A DNA stretch of 63,936 nt, counting the filler, from Craspedostauros australis (taxonomy: Eukaryota): the NCBI GenBank assembly GCA_030167865.1. It is 9 parts of 9 records of this genome, joined end to end, with 100 filler letters (N's around TTAATTAATTAA, not from the genome) between each part and the next. Parts side by side here need not be neighbours in the genome. Positions count along the whole stretch, not along the records: positions 48,970 to 53,566 come from JALAGF010004776.1; 8 more parts are not named here. One strand, 5' to 3'. A program made the position numbers and the translations under genes. Under the pieces are notes generated by a model, which did no database searches, had not been told where the DNA came from, and worked only from the letters and a program-made list of their open reading frames with translations. Below, piece by piece: positions 23,432-62,409 of this stretch (position 1 is its first letter; each line of letters opens with the position of its first letter).

Positions 23432-23531
23432 NNNNNNNNNNNNNNNNNNNNNNNNNNNNNNNNNNNNNNNNNNNNTTAATTAATTAANNNNNNNNNNNNN
23501 NNNNNNNNNNNNNNNNNNNNNNNNNNNNNNN
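23432..23531. other. Artificial contig linker N44-TTAATTAATTAA-N44 (also 31616-31715, 34854-34953, 45895-45994, 48870-48969, 53567-53666, 61105-61204, 62310-62409)
   Basis: Identical 100-nt structure eight times. TTAATTAATTAA gives stops in all six frames, and genes are cut off at the linkers. Confidence 0.97.
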
Positions 23532-31615: not shown

Positions 31616-34600
31616 NNNNNNNNNNNNNNNNNNNNNNNNNNNNNNNNNNNNNNNNNNNNTTAATTAATTAANNNNNNNNNNNNNNNNNNNNNNNNNNNNN
31701 NNNNNNNNNNNNNNNATAAATATACAAAATAACCGTGTCTCCCATATTGGAGCTGGACCTCAACAACTAGCGTTATCGTGGTGCATTTTCTCCCATCCGC
31801 TGGCCGGCGCGAAGTGCCAATCGGCAATGACAATTTCCAAAAAGCGCGCGCCTTGGCATTTTTGAAAAAAGTCCAGAGCATCGAGTCTCATCCATGCATG
31901 CTGCCGACAAGGACCGGACCGACTCAGTTTTGGTACCACCGTTCCGGACAAACTCGTTTGTTGATACCATGGGAAAACTTCCGTAGTATCGGGCGCCACG
32001 TCAGTGGGCGCCCCTAAGTAATCGATTGGCTCACAGCTCTTTTTCGAAACGAGTTTACAGGGGACTTCGGTTACTTCGAAAGGGAGAGAATTACAGTGGA
32101 AATGGAACACACGAAAATGAGCAGAATTTCTGGAGGAAATCTGCAATCGACGATTTCTGAGAGAATCAGGAACATCGTCTGTCCATCCATCAATGGTACC
32201 AAGAGAATCTCAAGGTACTTCCCAACTAAACCTCAGATGACGATATCATCTGACAGGCTACTGCATCACCAATGGAACATGACATCTGGAGAGCAGAAGG
32301 ACGCCTACTGACGTCGACAGGATGTCATTGTGTCACCATGTTGACATCTGTCTCCAAGTCAGAGCAGGAGGCGAAGATCCAATGACCGAAGAGGATCAGC
32401 ATCATGGATACTGAAGGTGAACTTCAAATGGTAAGTACTCATGGAGTAGGAGCCAGTAGTGAATGAACGGAGTGTCGAATGCGGAGTACGCATCGAACAT
32501 GGAGTATCATGCAGTACAAGTACACGATGCTGAGACAGAGAGAGAGAATACAGAGAGGAGCGAGAGAGCATCTCGCGTACCGACTCATAGTCGGAGACTG
32601 AATCTACGAAACAGATTGAAGCACCGAGAGCATCGGGCAAGAGAACGGGCATACACTGAGAGGATCGGAGTAGCCAACTAATGAAATAGCAAACAGACGA
32701 CTATCAACCAACACCATCTTCCACGATCGTAGGCTTCCAATCACAGAACTTGCCAACATCTACGTTCTCGGTGCGGTATCCTTCACACCCATCTACGATT
32801 ACGTTCCAACATATCAGAATCAAAGTTGCAACCTGGACCGACTTCAAAAGAAAATCGTGTGACGTCGGGGAGTATGTCAGGAATCGGGTGTTGTGAAACA
32901 CCGAATTGCCGCTCCTCCCAATAATGTGGAGTTGAGCACTATGGAATGCTCCATTACCGCACCTCCCAATAAGTCAAGAGTCAGGAGTCGAATGTCATGA
33001 AATGCTACATTACCGCAACTCCCATCTTTGACCATTGTGACACAGAAAATGTGAGCTGCACGTGTTTTGTGAAGGAGAACGACACGTGCCGAATGCGAAC
33101 CGGACTATGGTGTCCGTGACCTCAATGCAGGAATGCCAATCACACGTGTATGTCGCATGGGGCAGGGATGTTGGAATCGTGACCAACATCACGATACACG
33201 CGACTACAGCCCCCATGTCGCAACCAATGAAAAAGAGTACTGGAGGAAGGCCAATGTCACGAAGTGTGAGACGGCCTGTGAACGAACCAGTGATGACGAA
33301 CTTCCAAGAAGCCGGTGAAGCGATCGGCGAAGAAACCAGCAGAAACGACAGGAGAAGCATCGGAGAAGATCGGAGATGATCGGAGATGTTTGATGGTCGA
33401 GGAGCTGAATGAGCTCCCAACCAAGGTGCTCCTGCGACGAATGGGCAATCGTGATCTGATCGAATGAACCGATCTGTGTGATGCCTACGACTCGGTGATG
33501 TCTATGCTAACGAAGCTATTGGTAGAGGGCAGGAGATGGAATATCTGAGATGCATGATGAGATGCATGATGAGATGAACCAATACTGCAAGATGAGATGT
33601 ACNTGGAGTACATGCTGCATGACATGATGAAACAGGAGGACAGCACTGCATGAGCAAGGGCAAGACTGTGTGCTACTGTGGATTATGTATGCTTTGGCAA
33701 ATGGAATTGAAAGTGATGAAGATGTTGTACTCACAGTTCCAACAATGCAATAACATGAATAGGTAACCAGAGACTACTACTAGAGACTGGGGTACCCCGG
33801 ATTTCCAACAGGAGTACAAAAGGAACGTAGGCTGAAAGGAAATTTGTTTGTTTGTGAAAGTACTGGTTGTAATGTAAAGGCTTTGCAATTTTATGATTAT
33901 TGATGGATCGTCTGAATGAATGGGAGCAGAATGAACAGCGTGAATGGCAATGCTGTACACATTTTCACCACGCAAACCCACATGACTTCAGGATATTCAG
34001 ATGATCAATTGTGCCTGTTTTGCCACGTTGTTTCATGCAAGGCATTGCCCACAGGTGTGTTCTTCCATGCTTGTCCACTCATACCAAGACCAGAGGTCTT
34101 GGGAGATCTTTGTTTGATGTTGCCGGCATGCAATTGGTCTTGGATGAGAAACGTGATGTTAGCACAGGCCAATGTTGGAATCCTGTGGCATGCATCAGTT
34201 TTTATGGCTTGACAGTAGCATGTTGTATACATACAGAAGGTGTATCTTGGCCTACCTGCATGGAGGTCAAAGATCACATTGGGCAGTCTTGGTTTAATTC
34301 CCACGCTAACACAATTGTGATGTTGATGGTCAGTTTTCGTCCGTGCAAAACAAAAGACTGCACAGAAGGTACCAAGCATGACAATTTGGACCCCTTTGAT
34401 TAAAATCATCAGGGTGTCCCAATATTGTCTGTGGCCATTAACTCAAACTCACCGGAAACACGAGTGAGACTCTCCACGAATCACTTCTTCCGTTGTCTCA
34501 TGCTGACCGCTTTGGTGATGTGGAAAACGAATGACATCGGCAAGGCCAAATCCAAGACTCTATCCAATGTTATCGTTACTATCCGACACAAGGGTACTAT

Positions 34601-34953
34601 ACTTATCAACACAGAGCAAACTTGGCGAGTGCTGGATTCGTCGATTCCCCATGCCATAGTCGTAAGCAAAGTTGAGGCCTTCCTGCGCAAGCGATCTTCG
34701 CGAACATACCATTCCCAGTTCCGCAACTCGTGGGTGTCAAAAGAGCATGCAAAGCCATCCCGCATCCACCATGTTGAAACAGGTCTCAATCCTGTTGCTC
34801 ATGTAGACCGGGTGGGGCTACAATTGGTTCACTAAGTTAGTTGTTCTGTTATCNNNNNNNNNNNNNNNNNNNNNNNNNNNNNNNNNNNNNNNNNNNNTTA
34901 ATTAATTAANNNNNNNNNNNNNNNNNNNNNNNNNNNNNNNNNNNNNNNNNNNN

Positions 34954-45873: not shown

Positions 45874-45995
45874 CGGTTTGATGCCGTTATCGGANNNNNN
45901 NNNNNNNNNNNNNNNNNNNNNNNNNNNNNNNNNNNNNNTTAATTAATTAANNNNNNNNNNNNNNNNNNNNNNNNNNNNNNNNNNNNNNNNNNNNA

Positions 45996-48869: not shown

Positions 48870-51520
48870 NNNNNNNNNNNNNNNNNNNNNNNNNNNNNNN
48901 NNNNNNNNNNNNNTTAATTAATTAANNNNNNNNNNNNNNNNNNNNNNNNNNNNNNNNNNNNNNNNNNNNGCGCATCACCAGTCATCGACGCGCAGCACGG
49001 CGCAGCGCACCACAGAACGGCATGGACAACACAGGAGGATGGTCACAAGGTGCTTTGTACCATCCACTCTTTCCTTTGTGGGAAGGTCACAGTCATTCTA
49101 CATTCTGTGTAAGCTATGACTACAAGCAGCAGAGAAACAGGAGGAACTCGTTTGAGATGNNNNNNNNNNNNNNNNNNNACTTTGTGAGGAGGATTTTGTG
49201 CCTCCGCTGTGTCGTTGTGGAATGGATTCGCAATTCGGGACTCGCAAAGTGTTCTCATTGATGGGCGCATTCGGTAGAATTGTGGTTGATCTCCATGGCC
49301 CCCAACAGCAAAAACTGGTTGAGAACACCAAACACAACACAACAACACGACAATGGAGAAACACAACAAAACTCCACAAACGCCATCAAACGGCATCGAC
49401 GGCACTGTCACAACCAGCGGTCCAGTGCAAGATCTGAGCACATAGGCGGAACCGCCATGGAAAGCTTGGTGGACGAGCGAGAGCGGGATGTCATCTTGGC
49501 TTATTTGGGGCCGTGGCAGGCCCACGCGCACATGACACGATTCGGAGGAAAATCCGCTTGTTGGATACGGTCTCTGCCCGGAATGCACAGGCCATTCCAA
49601 CGACTATTGATGGGCAAGACGCATCCAGGAGGATGGTATGAAGGCTCCCACGAAGTTTGAGGGTCGGGGGTGGCCTGGAAGGCGCCCTCCGCAAGAAACA
49701 AGTTGAGGGCAAGAGTTTTTTGGTGGGTGGCGGCGGACACATCACGTGACTTCGCTGGTGATGGGTGTCATTGACAAGTCACCCAGATCGCCAAGCCACC
49801 CACTCAAGATGTGTTCAAAATCAACTCAGGGATCGGTTCATGAAGCGCCGGAAAAAACAAAGGTCTGGAAGAGGCTGCAGCCTGGGATGCACACAAAATG
49901 GTGTTTTTGGGGTGTCGCAAAAACTCCATGGTGGCATCAGCACATGGAGGTGTACCTTTGGAGGTATGAGCGCCCAACCCATTCTGAACACATCAGTGTG
50001 TCGCCAGAGAATGTTGGAACGCATGGGGAGCATGTGGAGGAGCTGCAAGGATTGTATCGACGAGATACGGATCCAAATACGAACGGCATCCGTGTCGGAA
50101 TCGGGTGTTCGAAAATTCTGCGTTTCAGTGCAGGGAGCCTTTGGGATATCCAATGCGCCCAGATTTTTCTGTCCTTCATGGAGTGGACAGATGGGGGGTA
50201 TCCGGAGCCAATGTGTTGCGCAGATTGTGAAAATGCCAGGGATGATAATGATGATCATGGGTGGTGAAGGTAGGGCAGCATGGTGCCATCGAGAATTTTT
50301 CCCACCCACAACCTGACTGACAGCAAGCCAAAAGGACATTAAAAATAAAGTCCATACAAATTTAACTTCGATATTCAGAATAAGCGATAGCCAAGCGTCC
50401 GAATGCACTGTCTAGTTTTAATTTTAAATGGTGCGTTGTTGAGATATAACATCATAAGCAGTTGTTTGGATGGTTTTGGGTGTGCTCTATTTTAGTCTAC
50501 TTTATCACGACTCATCACGAGTAAAACTCCACAACTAGTGCTATCGTGACCCATTTTACATTCTCTGCAGGTCGTAGTATGCGCACGAAGCTCGTATTTG
50601 CCCACATGATCGCCGCGAACAGAAAGGAGACAAAATGAACGAATACCTGATACTGGGATGGAGGTATCTCATTGAGCAACTCAGAGAAATGACGTCACAT
50701 GTTGATGTGGTGTTGCGACACACCCGCGGAGAGAAAAAAGAGTCTGTTGATGACGTGGTTGCGAGCGTGCAGCACTCGGGAAGGGAGTTTTGGGAACAAC
50801 AGGAACAGGGTTTACCGCAGCTTCCAACTTAACCCTTTACCGTTAATGACAGTCCCAACTCATGTCCCACAGCACACTCGTCCGAGCGGAGTAGTAGACG
50901 TTATCGGCACGAGTCTTGCGACACTCCATCGGAGAAATGGATGGGAACAACCCGTGCCATTGGTCCCCCACGCGCAAACAGAAGAGAGGCAATGTGAAGA
51001 ACACACACACAAACGAAACACAAACGACTCACTGACACACACACAAACGAATCACAAAAGCAATCGGATCAAAAGTGGAGAAATCAAGTTCCGAACCAAA
51101 ACACACACGGCAGCCATCGCCTGTCATTGTGGGATGCACCCACAATGAAGTTTTCTGTGCACCATCCACAACCATCAGGAACTTTCGCAACGGTAGGCGA
51201 AGGATCAATAACAACGACACAACAAGAGCAACAACAGTAACATCAGCATCGCGATACCCAAAGTATAGTCTTGAGGCAAGCATTCGACACGTGCACAAGT
51301 GCAAGCGCTTCCCCTCTTCATTGATCGGAATGCCAGTGACCAGAATGCCCTTGCTGACTTGAGGTGGTGCAGAGAGTTGGTCGCAGGCAGAGGACAGAGG
51401 ACAGAGGACAGAGGGTTGGGGTTGACTTTGGTGCTGGAAACCAGAGCGCACACGCACGAGTAGACGCAAACAGACACCACCACCAACAACAGCCACACCA
51501 TTCATCCAATAGTGGGCACC

Positions 51521-53558
51521 ATGGTCGGCATTACTCCCTCAGGCGGATCTCTGGACAACCAGTACCATCACAGAGTGCTCCAGGACCTCATCCGGGCGCT
51601 GCAGGATGATGAGCTCACCGACCTCACCCTGCAAGGATCCGACGATTCCTTGGTCCTGGCCAACCGATTCCTGCTGGGAGCACGGTCGCCGGTGTTCAAG
51701 CGAATGCTCTACGGATCCTTCCAGGAATCGAAGCAAACCATCATCTCCTTGCCGTACGAGCACGCAGTGCTGGAGGCCGTCGTGGAATGGTGCGGCTCGC
51801 ACGAGATCTCCACCTTCCGAGTGGGCTTGGGACGCAACGCCGCTTCGGCCAGACGTCTTGTGCAGCTGGTGCAGGCGGCGGACTTCTTGGAATTGACAGA
51901 GCTCGCTCGGCTGGTGACGCGGCTGACGCATGACCTCGCATCGAGGTACCCGCCGTTGGCCTGCGTCGTGTACGATCAAGTGGAGGATGTGGATCACTCG
52001 GCCGTCGGACAAGAGGCGATGCTCCTGTTGTACTGCCGTCCCTACGCCGCGCTGCCACCGTGCGGGGAGACGGATGGAGGTGTTGCGCAGCTGTCGGCCG
52101 AACGTCTCCACGGCCTCTTCTCCTCGAAGCACGTCCAGGCTGGCGAGTGGTTCCTGTTCCAGATGCTGCAGCAGTGGGTCGAGGCACAGCCCGACCCATC
52201 GCATGAGGATGTCGTCGAGGTCGCGAGGGCCTGTGCTGCTGAGATCACTCTGGAATGGATCGAACCGCAGGACCTGCTGGGTGCGGTCCTCAAGAGCCAA
52301 TGGATCGCTCCCGACCTCATCACGGCCGCCATCACCCAGCAGGCGCTCAAGGCGTCGCAAGACAGGGTCTGGACGCTTTCATGTCGAGGACCGACCGTGG
52401 AACGCATCCTCGTGGAAGGGGCGGGACATGCCAATGCCAACGGCATCTACTACAGAATACCCGGGCTGGCGAACGGGCAGCTGTACTCCAAACGAGAGGT
52501 CGCCTGCGGTCAGCAATTCGTCTACACGCTCAGTTGCAAGCAGCTCAATCGCAAGAAGGTGGAATGCCGAATCTTCTCCAGCAAGCTCCTGACCCAAGAC
52601 GGTGTGAGGAAGATCATGGACCTAGATGATGAAGACGATGAGAACCCCCGGCAGTACCCCTTCCGTCCGCTGCTGCAGGTCATCCGTTGCGAGACGGTCA
52701 TCACGGACGCCACGCCAACCTACATGTCCACGGGTCCATCAGCATCGCTGGAGCGTCGCAAGAAGAGGAAGCTGCAAGTGAGTCGGCGTTGCTGCTCATG
52801 TCGCTGTTGCATGCGTGGATTGTGTCATCGTCGTTGTTGTTGCTGCTGCTGCTGCTACTACTGCCGCCGTCGTGATTGCTTTGAGTTGCACTCTACCTGC
52901 GGGCACTCCACTCCATACAACACCCAATGCATGATACATGATACATGATGGACTCCAACTCTCATTCTCACACACTCCGATTACCAAAACGTCAACAAAT
53001 ACACAGATCCTGTTGGTTTCCGACGGCGAACACTTCATCACGGCGACCATGGCGCCGAAGCTGAGGAACAGCAACAGATCCAGCGACATCGGTCTCAACA
53101 GTCTCATCAAGCTGCTGTCATACGAAAAGTACATCCTGCAGGGCAAGGTGGCGATCCGAATCCACAAAGTATCGCTCGTCAGCCAGGATCCGGGGCACCA
53201 GTTCGGCCATCCCATCGATTACTACGACGATGATCATCCCGCCATGCATGGGTCCGAGCACGCGGATGGCACGGACTCACCGGTCATCACAGAGACATCG
53301 GTGGAATCGCACATCGGTGCACAGCTCCAGCTGCAGCAGAGCCTGTCGCAAGATCCGCCCAGCGACTTGAGCGAGTCGGAGGAGAGCCTTTACTTCTCCG
53401 AAGAATCCTTGATCAGCCTCTACTCGTGCCAATACGCTGTCAGCCACGCGCCTGTGGATTCGAAGATCCCGCGGCAAGGCTGGAAGGTTGACAGTGATGG
53501 GAATGCGCCGACACCATTCTGCCGTTGGATACCAGCTGCCAAGGATGCCGAGGCATGA
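51521..53558 (+). CDS. BTB/POZ-BACK protein with a C-terminal domain containing an RPA70N-like OB fold, 2 exons, ~602 aa
   Basis: Exons 51521-52777 and 53007-53558 (GTGAGT...CACAG, phase 0). BTB LTDLTLQGSD..VLANRFLLGARSPVFKRMLYGSFQE; BACK-like EWFLFQMLQQW; ILVEGAG..ANGIY; RPLLQVI...ILLVSDGEHFITATM...NSLIKL..Y...FGHP; IPRQGWKVDSDGNAPTP. Confidence 0.88.
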
Positions 53559-54383
53559 GCTGCCGANNNNNNNNNNNNNNNNNNNNNNNNNNNNNNNNNN
53601 NNNNNNNNNNTTAATTAATTAANNNNNNNNNNNNNNNNNNNNNNNNNNNNNNNNNNNNNNNNNNNNGGTGAAGTCATGGCCCCATTCATCATGATGGCGA
53701 TGGAGATGGCGCATGTGCAGAATTCGTCGTTGCAGCCGAGGGTCCTGCCGACGACAGTGGAACGATGATCAAGAGTATCTCCGGTTGCAACGATGAGGCA
53801 ACTCGTGGGGTCGTGGCGGCTGAAGAAGCCGAGGCCCGATTCAACAGCATCAAGGACGGTGATGGTGTGAATGATCTGCTGGCCAGAACCGTGAAGAACG
53901 GCGCGAGACTGCTCACTGGTGCGGAGAATGCATGCCGAGGAACCTTTGCTTCGGGATTGCGCACGGTGAAAACAACAAGGTCGGAGACAACTTCTTCATC
54001 AAAAAGTCTACGTGCCGTGCACGGCCGGCTCCTCATGCCGTCAATGTGCACGTAAAGAAGTGTGCAGCGAGAACAGCACATTGGCCTACATAACGACTTG
54101 TGACGCAACGTGAACACAAAAAACTCGAGAGAGAGAGAGAGAGAGCTTTCTATTCTGCTTATGGCCACCTAAGTTATGAATACACTTCCATCTTGCTTCA
54201 ACTATTTGCACTACGCAGCCAGAGAATTGAGAGTATTTTGCAGGCCGCGCAGTCGCCGAAGGGTTCGTGTGAATTCCAAATGCTCCCCGCCTCAGCCAGT
54301 CCTTCTCTTCCAGCTGCGCCTGTCCCAAATGTTTTTGCACAATACTATAGCTAAGTTTGTCCTGCGGAACCTCCGCCACCTCT

Positions 54384-57300
54384 TCAAGACATGTCTGTCA
54401 ATACTGATAGATCGTCATCGTCATCATCACCATTGGCATGGCCTTCAACAGTTTCATGGATGGCGTAGGACTTCTCCCTTTGCCTGGCTCTTGACTTCAA
54501 ACCGTCGCTCCTCAATCCAGTGCTCGTGACAGTTGGAACCACAGTTGCCTCTGGAGTACGAACAGTCACAAGATCAAAGCAGGCATCCAATCTCTGCGGA
54601 TCCATAAGCGCGACTGTTTGAGCAATGACGCCGTCGCTCTTTCGTGCGTGGCGCACAAGATCTTCATCGATGTGATCTCCGCGCCGCTGTCGCAGGTCCT
54701 CGCATTTGGTGACGGCGCCCCAAGCCTCGTAGAATTCTGCGGCGCGTGTGAAGTAATGGCGGATGAGGTTGGATGTTCTGTCCCGAGCATCGCGCGTGCT
54801 AATTCGTAAGAAGGCCTCACCGGCCATCTCGCACGCCAGGCCGGCTTCGTGGATATGGTTTCTCGATCTGGCCTTCTCGATCGCTTCGTCGTAACATGCT
54901 TGGACGTACGTGGGCGTTCGTGGGCCCATCTTGATGGCCTTCATTTCTGCTCGCAATAGGAGGTAATGGTGACGCACGTTGTTGCCTTTTGTTTCGCACA
55001 TTTGCTTGAGTATGTGCTTTTGCTTTCGGAGGATCGAGATGTACTTCCTTTGTTTCGTCTGATGATAACGGTTCGATGCCATCAGACCGCCCAATTGGGG
55101 TATGGATGATGCCACGGAGTACGCGAGGTCGCTCACCTTGGCGTTGTCCACAAGGTGGAACAGGACCTCGGCAAACTCGAACTTGCGGAAGAAGACCGCA
55201 AGGTGTAACCGGCTCCAGTGCGCGGTGTTTTGGAGGTACGGATCGCCACCTTCGAACTGTTTGAGGTTGCCAAGTTCATCCCAATCTAGCTTGAGGATGC
55301 CAGCCATGTACCTGGGGGCAAGGACGTACTCTGGCATGAGCTTGGAGTGGGCCTCGATCTTGTAGATGGTGAATTGTTGCAAGGCAGAATCGACAGCGGA
55401 TGATAAGCCGTCCAACGGGTATCCCTCCATGTATGCATAAATGAGACTTGAAAAATGAGACACGATGCCTATCTCAAAGTCACCACTCGACATGGCGGCT
55501 TTGTATGCCTCTTGAAAGTCAGAGCTGATCTCCGCAGGCTCCTTCGTGTATGGGTCGATGTAGATGGCCGCAACGTTGTAAACCAACGCGCGGATTCGTG
55601 TCCCGTCAACCTTGTGAATGGCCTTCTTTGCGAGTTCGATGTATCTTCGTGCGTTGGAATACTCCCCGAGAACAAGATGAAGCATTGCGAACATGGCCAG
55701 TCCTTGGCAGGAGCCTTCGCAGATGCCTTGTGCTCGAGTGATCTGGACCATCTGAACCGTGGACAGCACCCACGTGAGGGTGGATTGACACACGTAGCTC
55801 CGCACCGCGATTTGTTGCAGGAATCCGATGGATTGGATTGTGGCGGGATCTGTTGTCACGGGGCATCGGCTGAAGAACTCGTCGTCACTTGTTTGTCCAA
55901 AATAGGATCTTGCCGACATCAGTTGCCATACCGATCTGGCCAGGAACCCGCGCTTGGGATACACGTTGCACAGCTGGGCGCTGGCTTGGCTCATCTCAAG
56001 CGCGCGCTTGTGCTTGTCCTGTCTTGCCAAGGCATCCGCCATGGAGTGGTAGGTGGCAAGCTTGTGTGAAATGCACTGGGCATGCTGCAAGAGTTCGTCG
56101 CTCAACGAAAACCCCAGCTCGAAATTGCCAACAGCCAACTCAAGATCTGCTCTCGAACGAATCAAGCGCAGTGTGAGCTCGTATTGATATTTCCATGGGT
56201 TGCCATGGGCCTTCTTCAATTGCTCTGTCGCGATTTGCAGATATTTGGCGGCTGGGATGAGAGCGGCGATCTTCAACGCGTGCTCGCCGACTTCCAGATT
56301 CTGCTTGGCGGCCTGCAGATGATCCTTCGTTCGTGCCAAATTCAGATATTCCATGGCGACAAAAAGCAGGGCACCATCATCCGTGGCTGCACGGGACGTT
56401 GCAAGAGCGGCTCCGTCCCCTTTCTCGGAAGACTGGGTACCATCTGTGGACGCTGCACATATGTTCCACAGACATTGGCCGATGCGCAGTTGGAGCTTGA
56501 TGCGGATCTCGCCGAAGGGTACGAGACTCCGGGCCGCCTGCTGGACGCGATCATGCGCAAAGGAGTACGTAGTGCCTCCGATCGAGTTGTGCAGCATGCT
56601 TTCCAGCACCGCTTGTTCGAGCCATTCGACGACCGGAATGTCGTCATCGGGGATGTTTGGGGAGGATCTGAGGTTGCTTTCATCGTTGCCAAGGATATCT
56701 TCTGTGCCGCGGTTGTATCGGACTTCATAGTCCTGCAGCATCTGAAGCAGGCCTGAGTCGAAGGATGATCCGATGTACGATGCGAGTGCCAAGAGCTTTT
56801 GCAATGGACGAGGCAAGGATCGAATCCTGGATGTCAGGAGATAGGTGATGCCGTGCGGTCCTGTTGCCATCAATCCCCCATTCCCACTTGTGTTCGAATG
56901 GGAGTCATCTTGGAATTTCCATTGGGAGGAGATGGCATCGTATGCCAAGCCATGCGTGCGCTCCATCTCTCGCAACAGATGGATGGCGTGAAAGATATTG
57001 CCGCCAGTCTGTTGGTACAAATGCTCGGTGAGTCGACCGACGAACGCATCATGATCGCTGTGATCTGCGCCCCCAAGCTGGAGGAGATTCGACACCCAGT
57101 CGTAGAGCTCTTGCGGAGAAAAATCCGCGAGATGGATGCTGGTGTATGGCATGGGAGCGTTTCTCGTCTTGGCTCTGAGCTCTGTCGGAACGTCTTCCCG
57201 AGACGATGACTGACGGATGTCATTCAGAAGCTTCATGAACGGGAGAGTAGCATTCGGCTCCAGCAGCTCGCCCGGTGAGTGAGGATTGGTCTCTTGACGG

Positions 57301-58271
57301 ATGGTGCCGATCAAAAGTAGGTGAGGCCGGTGCAGGATGGTGGATACCAGATCCATGCTCTCCTGCGACGCCCACTGCAGATCGTCGAGCACCATCACCA
57401 ATGGACATTCCTTGGTCGATATGATTCTGAGGAATTGCGTGAACGTGTACTGGAGCCTGTTCCACGATGTCTCGGTGGAGAAGTCGGTCGGAGGTTTTGG
57501 AGCCGTCGCGCCTTGATTCTTCGCTTCGGCCGCCACATCACTGGCGCTGTTCAATAGGATGGACAGGGCCGGGATGAAGGAAATGAGGAGATCCTTTTGC
57601 TGCGATGTCATCCAGCTCGATTTGACTCTTCGACGCAGACGTTGAAGCTCCGTCGCCGTCTTGCTCTTGCTGTCTTTGTGCCCATCGGCATCGCTGATTG
57701 CGGCCAATCTCCCCGAACCAACCGTGAGGGTGGCAGCTTGGGACTCTAATTCGGCGCACCAGGCCGAGAATGCCTGCGTGATGGCGGCGAAGGGATTGTT
57801 TCGTTGGGATTCTTCAAACTTGCCCTTGATGATGATAATCTTGTGCCCGTCCCCTGATTGTTCGCAAAGCTGGGAACAGAACGCATCCACGAGCTTTGAC
57901 TTGCCCGTCCCGCTGGCACCCCATACAAACACAGCCGGAACCCAAGGCTCGGCGTCACTCTTGTTTACGTCGCATGGGGGCGTTGCCGGAGATGTCAGCT
58001 TCAGTACCTCGCCTCCATCGGGCGCCTTGCCGCCTCCATTCTGCGCCATCACTCGATAGAAAACATGACGCATCGTCCTCAATTCTTTTTGCCTCCCATG
58101 AAATCCACCCGCAAAGCAGCCGTCCTTGAAGAACGTAGTGGTGGGGTCGATGAGGTCGCCATCACATTGGTAGTCACCATCTGATGTGGACGTGCACGTG
58201 GACAGGGAACTCTCCAGGTGAGGACTTGGTTGGCCCGGAGTGTCGTCATGCACCGACGCTGTGGCGAGCAT
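54384..58271 (-). CDS. STAND-class (COG3899/AAA_16-type) P-loop ATPase with a helical TPR-like C-terminus, 1295 aa, single exon
   Basis: FHGRQKEL, Walker A GASGTGKSKLV, GKFEE..PFAAI, Walker B VMVLDDLQWA, LLIGTIR, TGGNIFH, RIRSLP..LALASYIG, YSFAHDRVQQAA. Confidence 0.9.
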   Translation of the reverse strand: MLATASVHDDTPGQPSPHLESSLSTCTSTSDGDYQCDGDLIDPTTTFFKDGCFAGGFHGRQKELRTMRHVFYRVMAQNGGGKAPDGGEVLKLTSPATPPCDVNKSDAEPWVPAVFVWGASGTGKSKLVDAFCSQLCEQSGDGHKIIIIKGKFEESQRNNPFAAITQAFSAWCAELESQAATLTVGSGRLAAISDADGHKDSKSKTATELQRLRRRVKSSWMTSQQKDLLISFIPALSILLNSASDVAAEAKNQGATAPKPPTDFSTETSWNRLQYTFTQFLRIISTKECPLVMVLDDLQWASQESMDLVSTILHRPHLLLIGTIRQETNPHSPGELLEPNATLPFMKLLNDIRQSSSREDVPTELRAKTRNAPMPYTSIHLADFSPQELYDWVSNLLQLGGADHSDHDAFVGRLTEHLYQQTGGNIFHAIHLLREMERTHGLAYDAISSQWKFQDDSHSNTSGNGGLMATGPHGITYLLTSRIRSLPRPLQKLLALASYIGSSFDSGLLQMLQDYEVRYNRGTEDILGNDESNLRSSPNIPDDDIPVVEWLEQAVLESMLHNSIGGTTYSFAHDRVQQAARSLVPFGEIRIKLQLRIGQCLWNICAASTDGTQSSEKGDGAALATSRAATDDGALLFVAMEYLNLARTKDHLQAAKQNLEVGEHALKIAALIPAAKYLQIATEQLKKAHGNPWKYQYELTLRLIRSRADLELAVGNFELGFSLSDELLQHAQCISHKLATYHSMADALARQDKHKRALEMSQASAQLCNVYPKRGFLARSVWQLMSARSYFGQTSDDEFFSRCPVTTDPATIQSIGFLQQIAVRSYVCQSTLTWVLSTVQMVQITRAQGICEGSCQGLAMFAMLHLVLGEYSNARRYIELAKKAIHKVDGTRIRALVYNVAAIYIDPYTKEPAEISSDFQEAYKAAMSSGDFEIGIVSHFSSLIYAYMEGYPLDGLSSAVDSALQQFTIYKIEAHSKLMPEYVLAPRYMAGILKLDWDELGNLKQFEGGDPYLQNTAHWSRLHLAVFFRKFEFAEVLFHLVDNAKVSDLAYSVASSIPQLGGLMASNRYHQTKQRKYISILRKQKHILKQMCETKGNNVRHHYLLLRAEMKAIKMGPRTPTYVQACYDEAIEKARSRNHIHEAGLACEMAGEAFLRISTRDARDRTSNLIRHYFTRAAEFYEAWGAVTKCEDLRQRRGDHIDEDLVRHARKSDGVIAQTVALMDPQRLDACFDLVTVRTPEATVVPTVTSTGLRSDGLKSRARQREKSYAIHETVEGHANGDDDDDDLSVLTDMS

Positions 58272-59771
58272 CCTGTACGATCCTGTGTTCGACTTCTTGG
58301 GCTGTGCACAGCGTCTCTCGTGCTTGTTGGATTGGTTCGTCGATCAATGATTGGTCAATGATTTCAGCTGCACTAATATTTTATGGAATGTGGTGGCAGA
58401 CATGTCGGGCTGTGTGGATGGATGTGCATTCGAGTACTACTCTTGTATCGAGTATGGTGGTAGGTCCTCGTATGGTCGAGTGTGCATGACTACCTGTGTG
58501 TTCGCACCATACTAGGACGCTTGGTTCTGCTCATGATGTTTCTTCAACGCCGCGGCAACAAGGTACACTTGAGGATGAAAAAGTGGTGGATTGGTGACGT
58601 GGTGGTGATCAATGTGTCGTCTTCTGTCAGTGGGTGTCGATCCCATAGTCGTGGGTTGGTGAACTGTGGACCATACTTGCGATGGCTCTTTGATCATGGC
58701 TGGGGTCATGAGCGTGGACAAGTTTCATTGCGGATGTGTCCACAGTGAGTGTTTCCCGCTTGTTGGCGCAACCTTCATGTGGGGGCGTGTCGCACCCTTG
58801 TCTCCGAGCAAGCGTTCGGGATTGGTTAAGGGATTGTTTGTGGTCCCTGGAAGGAGAGGACAGTTGATGGCTGACAACGAACACCATTGACTATGTCTAC
58901 ATAGTGATTGTTCCACCCATTGAATTTGCATTGAAATAGTACGTGGCCCGTGGATTGGATGGAGCACCACGCTTCGGAGGTCACTTTGTGAAGTGTCGCA
59001 GAATTGGTGAGAGCCGCCGTCTATTTGGCACACGGCAAAGGTTTGTGAAGTAATAGAGCCCAAACGTAATGGCTGTTGTCTTGTTGGCTGTTCTTTAGCT
59101 GTAGGCAGAGGCTTGACTGGCAAGCGATCCGGANNNNNNNNNNNNNNNNNNNNNNNNNNNNNNNNAGAATACTGGTAGATGGTGAAGAAACGTGCGGATT
59201 ATGAGATTAGTGCTATGGTTCTTCTCTTCGAGGGGAATCTCCTGTGATGTCCTGTATGACAGTGCGTGTGGGTTGTGTAGCCCAAGTACCGTGGGTTGAG
59301 ATCCGTCGTCTGGGTTCTGTGAGAGACAATGGGCGATGATGCTCGTTGTTGTGGCTTTGGTTCCGTGCGTCGGCGTTTTGGCGATGGTGGGTGTCAGAAA
59401 CTTGGTTATCGGAACCCCATTGGTTCCCTGACACGAATTCCGAAGATCCGCTTCAAGGTTCTGGATCTGTCTCCAAACGTGGGGTTCGGCGAAGTGTCCG
59501 TTCGACCTACTGGAATGCTGACGAGTCGGATGATTCGTAGTCTCTCTCGCTAAGGTGGTTACTAGTTTAGCTCTATTATGAAGGAAACGAACCTCGCACG
59601 AGCGGTACCACCCACCACTCCGAACGGTTGCGGCAGGCACGTAGCATGCTCGTAGTACACCGTTGTGCTCATACAGTCATCATCGACACCATCTCACCGT
59701 TGGGCATATCTTCTTCGTGGAGGTGTGGATAGGTTGGCGACGACTGATTCGATGATCGATGCTTGTACCTC

Positions 59772-60935: not shown

Positions 60936-61205
60936 CGGGGCGCCTGATGCTCCAGCCACAGTTGCCACCGTTGCTCCCGTCGGTTGTATTGAGTTGATTG
61001 TGGTGGTTGCTGTGATTGGTTCGGATCTATCTGTCTGTGGATGGAAATGTAGCTCGTATCATGCTATACCATGCGCTTCCGTTGGTCTATCTACTTCTCT
61101 CTCTNNNNNNNNNNNNNNNNNNNNNNNNNNNNNNNNNNNNNNNNNNNNTTAATTAATTAANNNNNNNNNNNNNNNNNNNNNNNNNNNNNNNNNNNNNNNN
61201 NNNNA

Positions 61206-62309: not shown

Positions 62310-62409
62310 NNNNNNNNNNNNNNNNNNNNNNNNNNNNNNNNNNNNNNNNNNNNTTAATTAATTAANNNNNNNNNNNNNNNNNNNNNNNNNNNNNNNNNNN
62401 NNNNNNNNN

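Follow-up and report, generated by a model that had tools for sequence, protein, structure and literature searches.

What does a protein do that carries, inside one of its own domains, a copy of RPA70N, a domain known chiefly for serving replication protein A (RPA) as its recruitment platform? The question is raised by a two-exon gene at positions 51521-53558 (plus strand) of a 63,936-nucleotide stretch of Craspedostauros australis DNA (assembly GCA_030167865.1), which as a whole we call the window. The predicted product consists of a BTB-BACK module followed by a small beta-domain, here termed the host domain, which is interrupted by an RPA70N-like OB fold and an acidic linker. Taken whole, the protein is probably a Cul3 adaptor in which an RPA70N-derived OB fold and its linker, inserted in the beta-domain of a BTB-BACK protein, form part of a composite receptor. 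Its parts are as follows.

51521-52777, plus strand: exon 1, 419 amino acids (aa; P0001), from an ATG at 51521 to the C-terminal end ...RRKKRKLQ; encodes the BTB domain, the 3-box/BACK helices, the N-terminal half of the host domain, and the opening portion of the OB fold (first helix, strand 1, loop)
51602-51922, plus strand: BTB/POZ domain, aa 28-134 (Pfam PF00651, E 8.4e-09, 36 bits against a cut-off of 20.5)
51719-51727, plus strand: Phe67-Gln68-Glu69, counterpart of KLHL11 Phe130-Ser131-Glu132 in the alpha3-beta4 loop
51923-52381, plus strand: helical 3-box/BACK-like region, about aa 135-287
52394-52585, plus strand: N-terminal half of the host domain, aa 292-355 (ERILVEGAG..NGIYYRI..LYSKRE..FVYTLS..ECRIFSS), many of its columns invariant or nearly so
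52586-52777, plus strand: first part of the OB fold, aa 356-419, with the N-terminal helix, strand 1 (PLLQVI) and the long L12 loop to RRKKRK
52778-53006, plus strand: intron of 229 nucleotides, GT-AG (GTGAGT...ACAG), with runs of GCT/GTT triplets
53007-53558, plus strand: exon 2, 183 aa (P0002) and a TGA stop at 53556-53558
53007-53228, plus strand: second part of the OB fold, exon 2 aa 1-74 (spliced aa 420-493), from strand 2 (LLVSDG) to ...FGHPIDYY
53229-53414, plus strand: acidic Ser/Asp/Glu-rich linker, spliced aa 494-555, predicted to be disordered in an ortholog
53415-53543, plus strand: C-terminal half of the host domain, exon 2 aa 137-179 (spliced aa 556-598), SLYSCQY...IPRQGWKVDSDGNAPTPFCRWIP

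The insert is related to RPA70N

The initial annotation of this locus had proposed an OB fold of the RPA70N type, and evidence from profiles, from relatives and from a modelled ortholog agrees with it. The Pfam family Rep-A_N (PF04057) matches 15 of 20 relatives at E <= 0.1, eight of them over the gathering score (28.0-41.4 bits); two of the five without a match are truncated upstream of the OB fold, and the other three possess the region by alignment. Family profiles match human RPA70N chains over positions ~14-123 with E-values of 3.9e-8 to 2e-7 and 1.3e-9 to 8.6e-9. A phmmer search of PDB sequences with exon 2 alone returned nothing at E <= 10, RPA70N being reached by profiles only.

Structures were predicted for an ortholog, P0037, and a paralog, P0145, rather than for the spliced protein of the window. 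The AlphaFold2 model of P0037 (597 aa, 25-row alignment) has a predicted local distance difference test (pLDDT) score of 75.6 and a predicted template-modelling (TM) score of 0.73. It superposes on human RPA70N with TM-scores of 0.80 (2b29) and 0.85 (5eay_D) and a root-mean-square deviation of 2.2-2.6 A over ~120 columns. Among the matches listed for this model, all those of OB-domain size (about 120 columns) are human RPA70N entries.

A profile of RPA70-type N-domains was built from 35 such domains, each a single N-terminal one; a Pfam check of ten showed all ten to be Rep-A_N and seven to have further RPA70 domains. This profile scores 65.9 bits over the whole domain in the spliced window protein, 50.8 bits in exon 2 alone and 10.5 bits in exon 1 alone. 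It matches 13 of 13 family members and none of six paralogs with an uninterrupted host domain above 5 bits. Conversely, the best outside matches of a profile of the embedded OB fold are the N-termini of six proteins shown by Pfam to be of the RPA70 type (54-66 bits). In the ESM Atlas, the clusters nearest to the relative P0066 are Rep-A_N (0.78-0.79, a lead only). The other RPA70 domains, tRNA_anti-codon, REPA_OB_2 and Rep_fac-A_C, have no match in the window exons or in the 20 relatives; true RPA70s match all three in Pfam. Judged by these profiles and the modelled fold, the insert is a true RPA70N homologue. The initial annotation had placed it at about 52661-53222; the location holds, and the extent is slightly wider (52586-52777 and 53007-53228) and includes the N-terminal helix.

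Another use of RPA70N outside RPA70 is seen in P0112, P0117, P0122, P0123, P0125, P0130, P0136, P0143 and P0165, which contain two to seven tandem Rep-A_N domains and no other strong Pfam match; we know of no description of such proteins. They were considered as donors of the insert and rejected, as they reach at most 44.5 bits per domain versus the 54-66 bits of the RPA70-type N-termini.

The OB fold is nested in a second domain

Some weak matches to the family's C-terminal profile are confined to one end of it, either its first or its last ~60 positions. Of twelve such matches that were fetched, eleven are BTB-BACK proteins with an uninterrupted domain of ~100 residues, and the twelfth is a C-terminal fragment. 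In these paralogs the motifs ERVxVEGAG..NGIYxR and xLYSC....vP..GW....PaPxCtW lie ~50 residues apart with no OB fold between them. A further search added 48 uninterrupted BTB-BACK proteins, the named ones from Cyclotella, Conticribra, Thalassiosira and Discostella.

From paralogs only, a 112-position profile of the uninterrupted domain was built, which matches exon 1 at aa 292-314 (profile 4-26, 20.9 bits) and exon 2 at aa 137-179 (profile 69-110, 31.8 bits). In 20 of 20 family members, too, it matches two separate segments with ~200 residues between them. Across 61 rows the core columns include an invariant Gly, two Tyr and a Pro, with Val-Glu-Gly, Asn, Cys, Pro, Trp, Gly and Pro nearly invariant; in the C-terminal half, the columns Y, P, W, G, P and P are common to the window protein and the paralogs. 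Nesting of the OB fold in the host domain, as the initial annotation had suspected, is thus well supported at the sequence level by the uninterrupted paralogs and the two-piece matches.

The two models suggest where the host domain was opened. In paralog P0145 (61-row alignment) it is predicted to be seven-stranded (residues 110-114, 123-127, 140-143, 152-157, 160-165, 168-177 and 206-210), with a pLDDT mostly of 85-94, falling to 66-71 in the long loop that joins strands 2 and 3. In P0037 the host strands are at 311-315, 323-328, 349-358 and 363-372, followed by a helix, the OB fold and disorder, and then by strands at 546-555 and 582-586. By our own matching of the two models, the insertion point would be the tight hairpin that joins strand 5 to strand 6.

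Alternatively, the segments that flank the OB fold may now be independent, so that the protein would be a string of BTB-BACK module, small beta-unit, OB fold, linker and C-terminal motif. The low model confidence of the N-terminal half of the host domain in P0037 would fit such a string. However, all family members examined retain, in both halves, the residues at the core of the uninterrupted domain, and our comparison finds the strands of the two models in matching order, one for one, so we regard this alternative as improbable. A predicted complex of P0001 aa 288-360 with P0002 aa 126-183 scored 0.01; alignments were unused and controls were not run, and the score carries no evidential weight.

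In 11 proteins, the host domain had no match to any Pfam family at E <= 1. Foldseek returned nothing for it at E <= 1e-3, the remainder of the list being filled by the helical part of the protein, and for this reason we make no claim of a new fold. In the ESM Atlas, the nearest entry is a eukaryote cluster at 0.75, which we treat as a lead only. We describe the host domain as an undescribed, confidently folding domain of BTB-BACK proteins.

A probable KLHL-type BTB-BACK module

By family-level comparison, the N-terminal two thirds of the protein corresponds to a KLHL-type BTB / 3-box / BACK module. The BTB domain, as listed above, exceeds the Pfam cut-off in the window protein itself, while the BACK fold is supported at the family level, and the BTB-BACK architecture that had been assigned to the locus is supported. 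A profile of 43 relatives matches the BTB-BACK chain of KLHL11 over chain positions 32-273 (E 1.2e-10) and KLHL3 at 2e-10. With the P0037 model as query, Foldseek matches at E <= 5e-8 include KBTBD2 chains from Cul3 complexes, the KLHL11 BTB-BACK crystal structure and the KLHL22-Cul3 complex; the TM-score to the KLHL11 BTB-BACK structure is 0.60.

In the profile alignment, the family consensus sFrEaks pairs with QFSESRS of KLHL11, and the Phe and Glu of this loop (F67 and E69 in the window protein) are at least 90% conserved across 52 rows. Phe-130 of KLHL11 inserts into Cul3, while Ser-131 and Glu-132 form hydrogen bonds to it (PMC3597819). By analogy, given the KLHL-type module and the conserved Phe-x-Glu loop, a Cul3-adaptor role is plausible and is the natural reading for a BTB-BACK protein, a class that commonly delivers substrates to cullin-3 ubiquitin ligases. 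In the corresponding rival explanation the BTB-BACK part is no Cul3 adaptor and uses its BTB domain for self-association only, as an oligomeric scaffold or regulator. That numerous BTB proteins lack Cul3 binding is generally known and lends this explanation some weight; the specifically KLHL-type order of BTB, 3-box and BACK and the retained Phe-x-Glu loop argue against it, and we judge it unlikely.

Gene model and genomic context

The ATG at 51521 has the start context CACCATGG and is the first ATG of a plus-strand frame that is open from 51464; the N-terminus of the predicted protein lines up with the starts of orthologs in the alignment. A second plus-strand frame opens at 52935 and ends at the TGA at 53556-53558. 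At the junction, the donor CAA/GTGAGT at 52778 is a consensus site and the acceptor ACAG ends at 53005-53006. When all GT dinucleotides at 52640-52948 were paired with all AG dinucleotides at 52800-53060, six pairs kept the frame open, and among these only 52778/53007 keeps both conserved OB strands, LLQVI and LSDGEH. Reading through the intron leads to a stop at 52946-52948. The joined exons give 419 + 183 = 602 aa, which is the two-exon product that had been proposed, and the peptides quoted in the initial annotation are all present where it had placed them.

Both exons are collinear with full-length relatives, and the junction falls at LSDGxH, which is conserved in the family alignment. The relatives P0060, P0062 and P0065, evidently called without splicing, run on as VS... 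at the same point; because this is how a GTxAGx donor would be read, the intron position looks conserved. The interior of the intron contains GTT/GCT triplet runs at 52822-52876, a stretch that was passed over as repeated in read mapping.

The window is itself a chain of short, separate contigs joined by eight spacers, each of 44 N, TTAATTAATTAA and 44 N (23432-23531, 31616-31715, 34854-34953, 45895-45994, 48870-48969, 53567-53666, 61105-61204 and 62310-62409). Such a construction could in principle make the gene an artefact of the gene model or assembly, with unrelated coding pieces brought together by chance or misassembly. However, the gene forms the 3' end of one uninterrupted piece, 48970-53566, which contains both exons. 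Moreover, the same order of parts recurs in dozens of relatives, and these include the transcriptome-derived relatives P0040, P0047 and P0024, which have both parts in a single intron-less, full-length open reading frame. We consider an artefact hardly credible.

In the 2.5 kb upstream of the gene on the same piece, the list of open reading frames, whose frames were not searched against databases, contains no convincing coding frame. Since each piece is its own contig, lying across a spacer from the BTB-BACK gene implies no linkage to it. This applies to an open frame of 1319 aa on the minus strand of the next piece (54384-58343).

Family distribution and history

The window protein has 64 relatives at E <= 1e-3, the best of which is 55% identical; none is the window's own. 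Searched against 1.84 billion representative sequences, the C-terminal profile gave 139 matches at E <= 1e-3. Of these, 53 are at E <= 1e-30, and all or nearly all of the 53 are members of the insert-bearing family and their fragments. Insert-bearing BTB-BACK proteins form a conserved family, probably of diatoms, a range drawn from two Nitzschia names and a transcriptome that bears the label Tiarina.

A tree was computed from 46 rows, including exon 1 of the window and leaving out fragments, and from the 412 columns that are filled in at least 60% of rows. Because insert-bearing rows make up 57% of the total and so fall below this fill, the columns of the OB fold itself should not have entered the tree. 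One branch separates the 26 insert-bearing rows from the 20 uninterrupted rows, with a Shimodaira-Hasegawa-like approximate likelihood ratio test (SH-aLRT) value of 100. This topology would fit a single gain or a single loss of the OB insert, with sisters that keep the domain uninterrupted.

Among the papers listed in a literature search, judged in part by title and abstract, none describes a BTB-BACK plus RPA70N architecture or this diatom family, in keeping with the initial annotation, which knew of no described protein with this architecture. The architecture is nonetheless already in databases, as one public Nitzschia inconspicua entry bears automatic BTB and Rep-A_N labels.

The groove and its possible ligands

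Human RPA70N holds its partners by a hydrophobic groove floor (I33, M57, L87, V93, I95) and a basic rim (R31, R41, R43, K88, R91) (PMC10479964). In a HMMER alignment to a solved chain, the floor residues correspond in the window protein to Val (I33), Met (M57), Val (V93) and Ile (I95). Hydrophobic residues remain family-wide in the M57, V93 and I95 columns. The rim is different: the R31 column is Asp or Glu in 32 of 52 family rows, while one large subclade retains Arg at the place of R43 (IRKYYRVR-LSDG). In the R81 column, 31 of 43 rows have Glu or Asp. By alignment, the floor of the groove is kept and the canonical arginines, for which the loop alignments are uncertain, are mostly lost by position.

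Because the floor is kept and the rim mostly is not, the ligands of the groove are likely amphipathic peptides and need not be the acidic motifs of RPA70N. In our reading, the groove would still bind such peptides, with a specificity that has drifted from the acidic motifs that canonical partners of RPA70N carry. Capture of the canonical ligands is only hypothetical, since the arginines are mostly not kept by position. Toward the 3' end of exon 1, the L12 loop contains a basic run, RRKKRK (52754-52771), immediately before strand 2; speculatively, this run could line the groove or act as a nuclear localisation signal. The linker on the other side is acidic in the family members measured: the 60 residues C-terminal to the OB fold are net negative in 25 of 25 (-1 to -12), and residues 494-544 of the P0037 model have a pLDDT below 50.

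These charges also bear on the possibility that the embedded OB fold acts on nucleic acid, or on single-stranded DNA coated with RPA, and so recruits a BTB dimer to single-stranded DNA, alone or together with Cul3. The OB fold is related to the domains of a single-stranded DNA-binding protein, direct binding of single-stranded DNA by RPA70N has been reported (PMC3561959), and the RRKKRK run lies within the L12 loop of the embedded domain. Against this, the nearest relatives of the embedded OB fold are the protein-docking N-domain and not the DNA-binding domains A-C, and the OB fold, with net charges of -7 to +4 among the 25 members measured, is mostly neutral to acidic and is followed by the acidic linker. 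On balance, we find a role on nucleic acid doubtful.

Proposed function

In the reading that we favour, that of a Cul3 adaptor with a composite receptor, the protein would dimerise through its BTB domain and bind Cul3 through the BTB domain and the 3-box, and the composite C-terminal module would serve as the substrate receptor. The old beta-domain would offer one surface and the groove of the captured OB fold a second, peptide-binding one.

Several observations weigh against this reading. With exon 2 alone, Rep-A_N of Pfam reaches 13.6 bits, below its gathering score of 26.7, a weak score that can be put down to the domain straddling the intron. The 35 RPA70-type domains were chosen among matches to the family profile, which biases them toward likeness. 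The Pfam BACK score of the window protein, 15.8 bits, is under the cut-off of 20.9. In the P0037 model, the N-terminal half of the host domain has a pLDDT of 45-52 at residues ~300-345, and since this half is poorly predicted, the packing of the two halves is inferred from the paralogs rather than seen. In the groove, the rim positions of the window protein are Glu for R31, Ile for R43, Leu for K88 and a gap beside Lys for R91. Lastly, the sole sequencing run found, which is RNA by guess only, yielded one contig (53024-53560) and no read across the junction, a result that is in itself neutral.

A more specific proposal is that diatoms built a receptor for a cullin-3 ligase by capturing RPA70N, and that this receptor reads the amphipathic motifs of the checkpoint and repair proteins that dock on RPA, either degrading them or competing with RPA for them. 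We put this forward as a long shot. If it is true, the replication-stress response would be controlled at the level of ubiquitin in a way without a known counterpart in animals, fungi or plants. A free-standing copy of RPA70N in a probable ubiquitin ligase (E3) adaptor would be a natural experiment in the re-use of a recruitment platform, and would offer a way into the control of replication stress in diatoms, in which this pathway is little mapped. Finally, the locus offers a clean natural case of domain insertion into a hairpin, with an uninterrupted, ancestor-like form surviving in sisters, and may be useful for studies of domain insertion.

Comparison with known systems

One close comparison is with the diatom sister family (e.g. 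Cyclotella cryptica, Thalassiosira and Discostella), whose members are labelled hypothetical or BTB domain-containing proteins. The two families have the BTB-BACK module and the C-terminal domain in common, and they share the invariant Gly/Tyr/Pro/Trp columns at an identity of 21-30%. The sister family lacks the OB insert and the acidic linker, and many of its members have a conserved C-terminal tail of their own. In the paralogs P0142, P0145, P0146 and P0164 this tail follows the host domain and reads …APxLEEMxDPTIAxKRxS.YFD… …TLEQMMxLPxDR; it is absent from the insert-bearing family.

A beta-domain in place of Kelch repeats is also known from BTB-BACK-PHR proteins (BTBD1/2/3/6), in which it follows the BTB-BACK module. 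BTB-BACK-PHR is named as an architecture in the abstract of a preprint (bioRxiv 10.1101/575910). No PHR chain is among the fold matches listed for the host domain, a comparison that is barely tested as the helical part filled the lists.

Like the KLHL and KBTBD adaptors of cullin-3 ligases (KLHL11, KLHL3, KBTBD2), the window protein has a BTB domain, followed by helices that, judged at the family level by profile and fold, correspond to the 3-box and BACK. It retains the Phe-x-Glu loop that contacts Cul3 and has a C-terminal domain at the position of the substrate receptor. Unlike these adaptors, it has no Kelch propeller, and a small beta-domain without a Pfam family, containing an OB fold, stands in its place. 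With RPA70N itself (DBD-F, Rep-A_N PF04057), the insert matches over the whole domain, including the N-terminal helix, and the hydrophobic groove floor is common to both. In RPA70 this domain is N-terminal, whereas in the insert-bearing family it lies inside another domain, and its L12 loop is long and variable.

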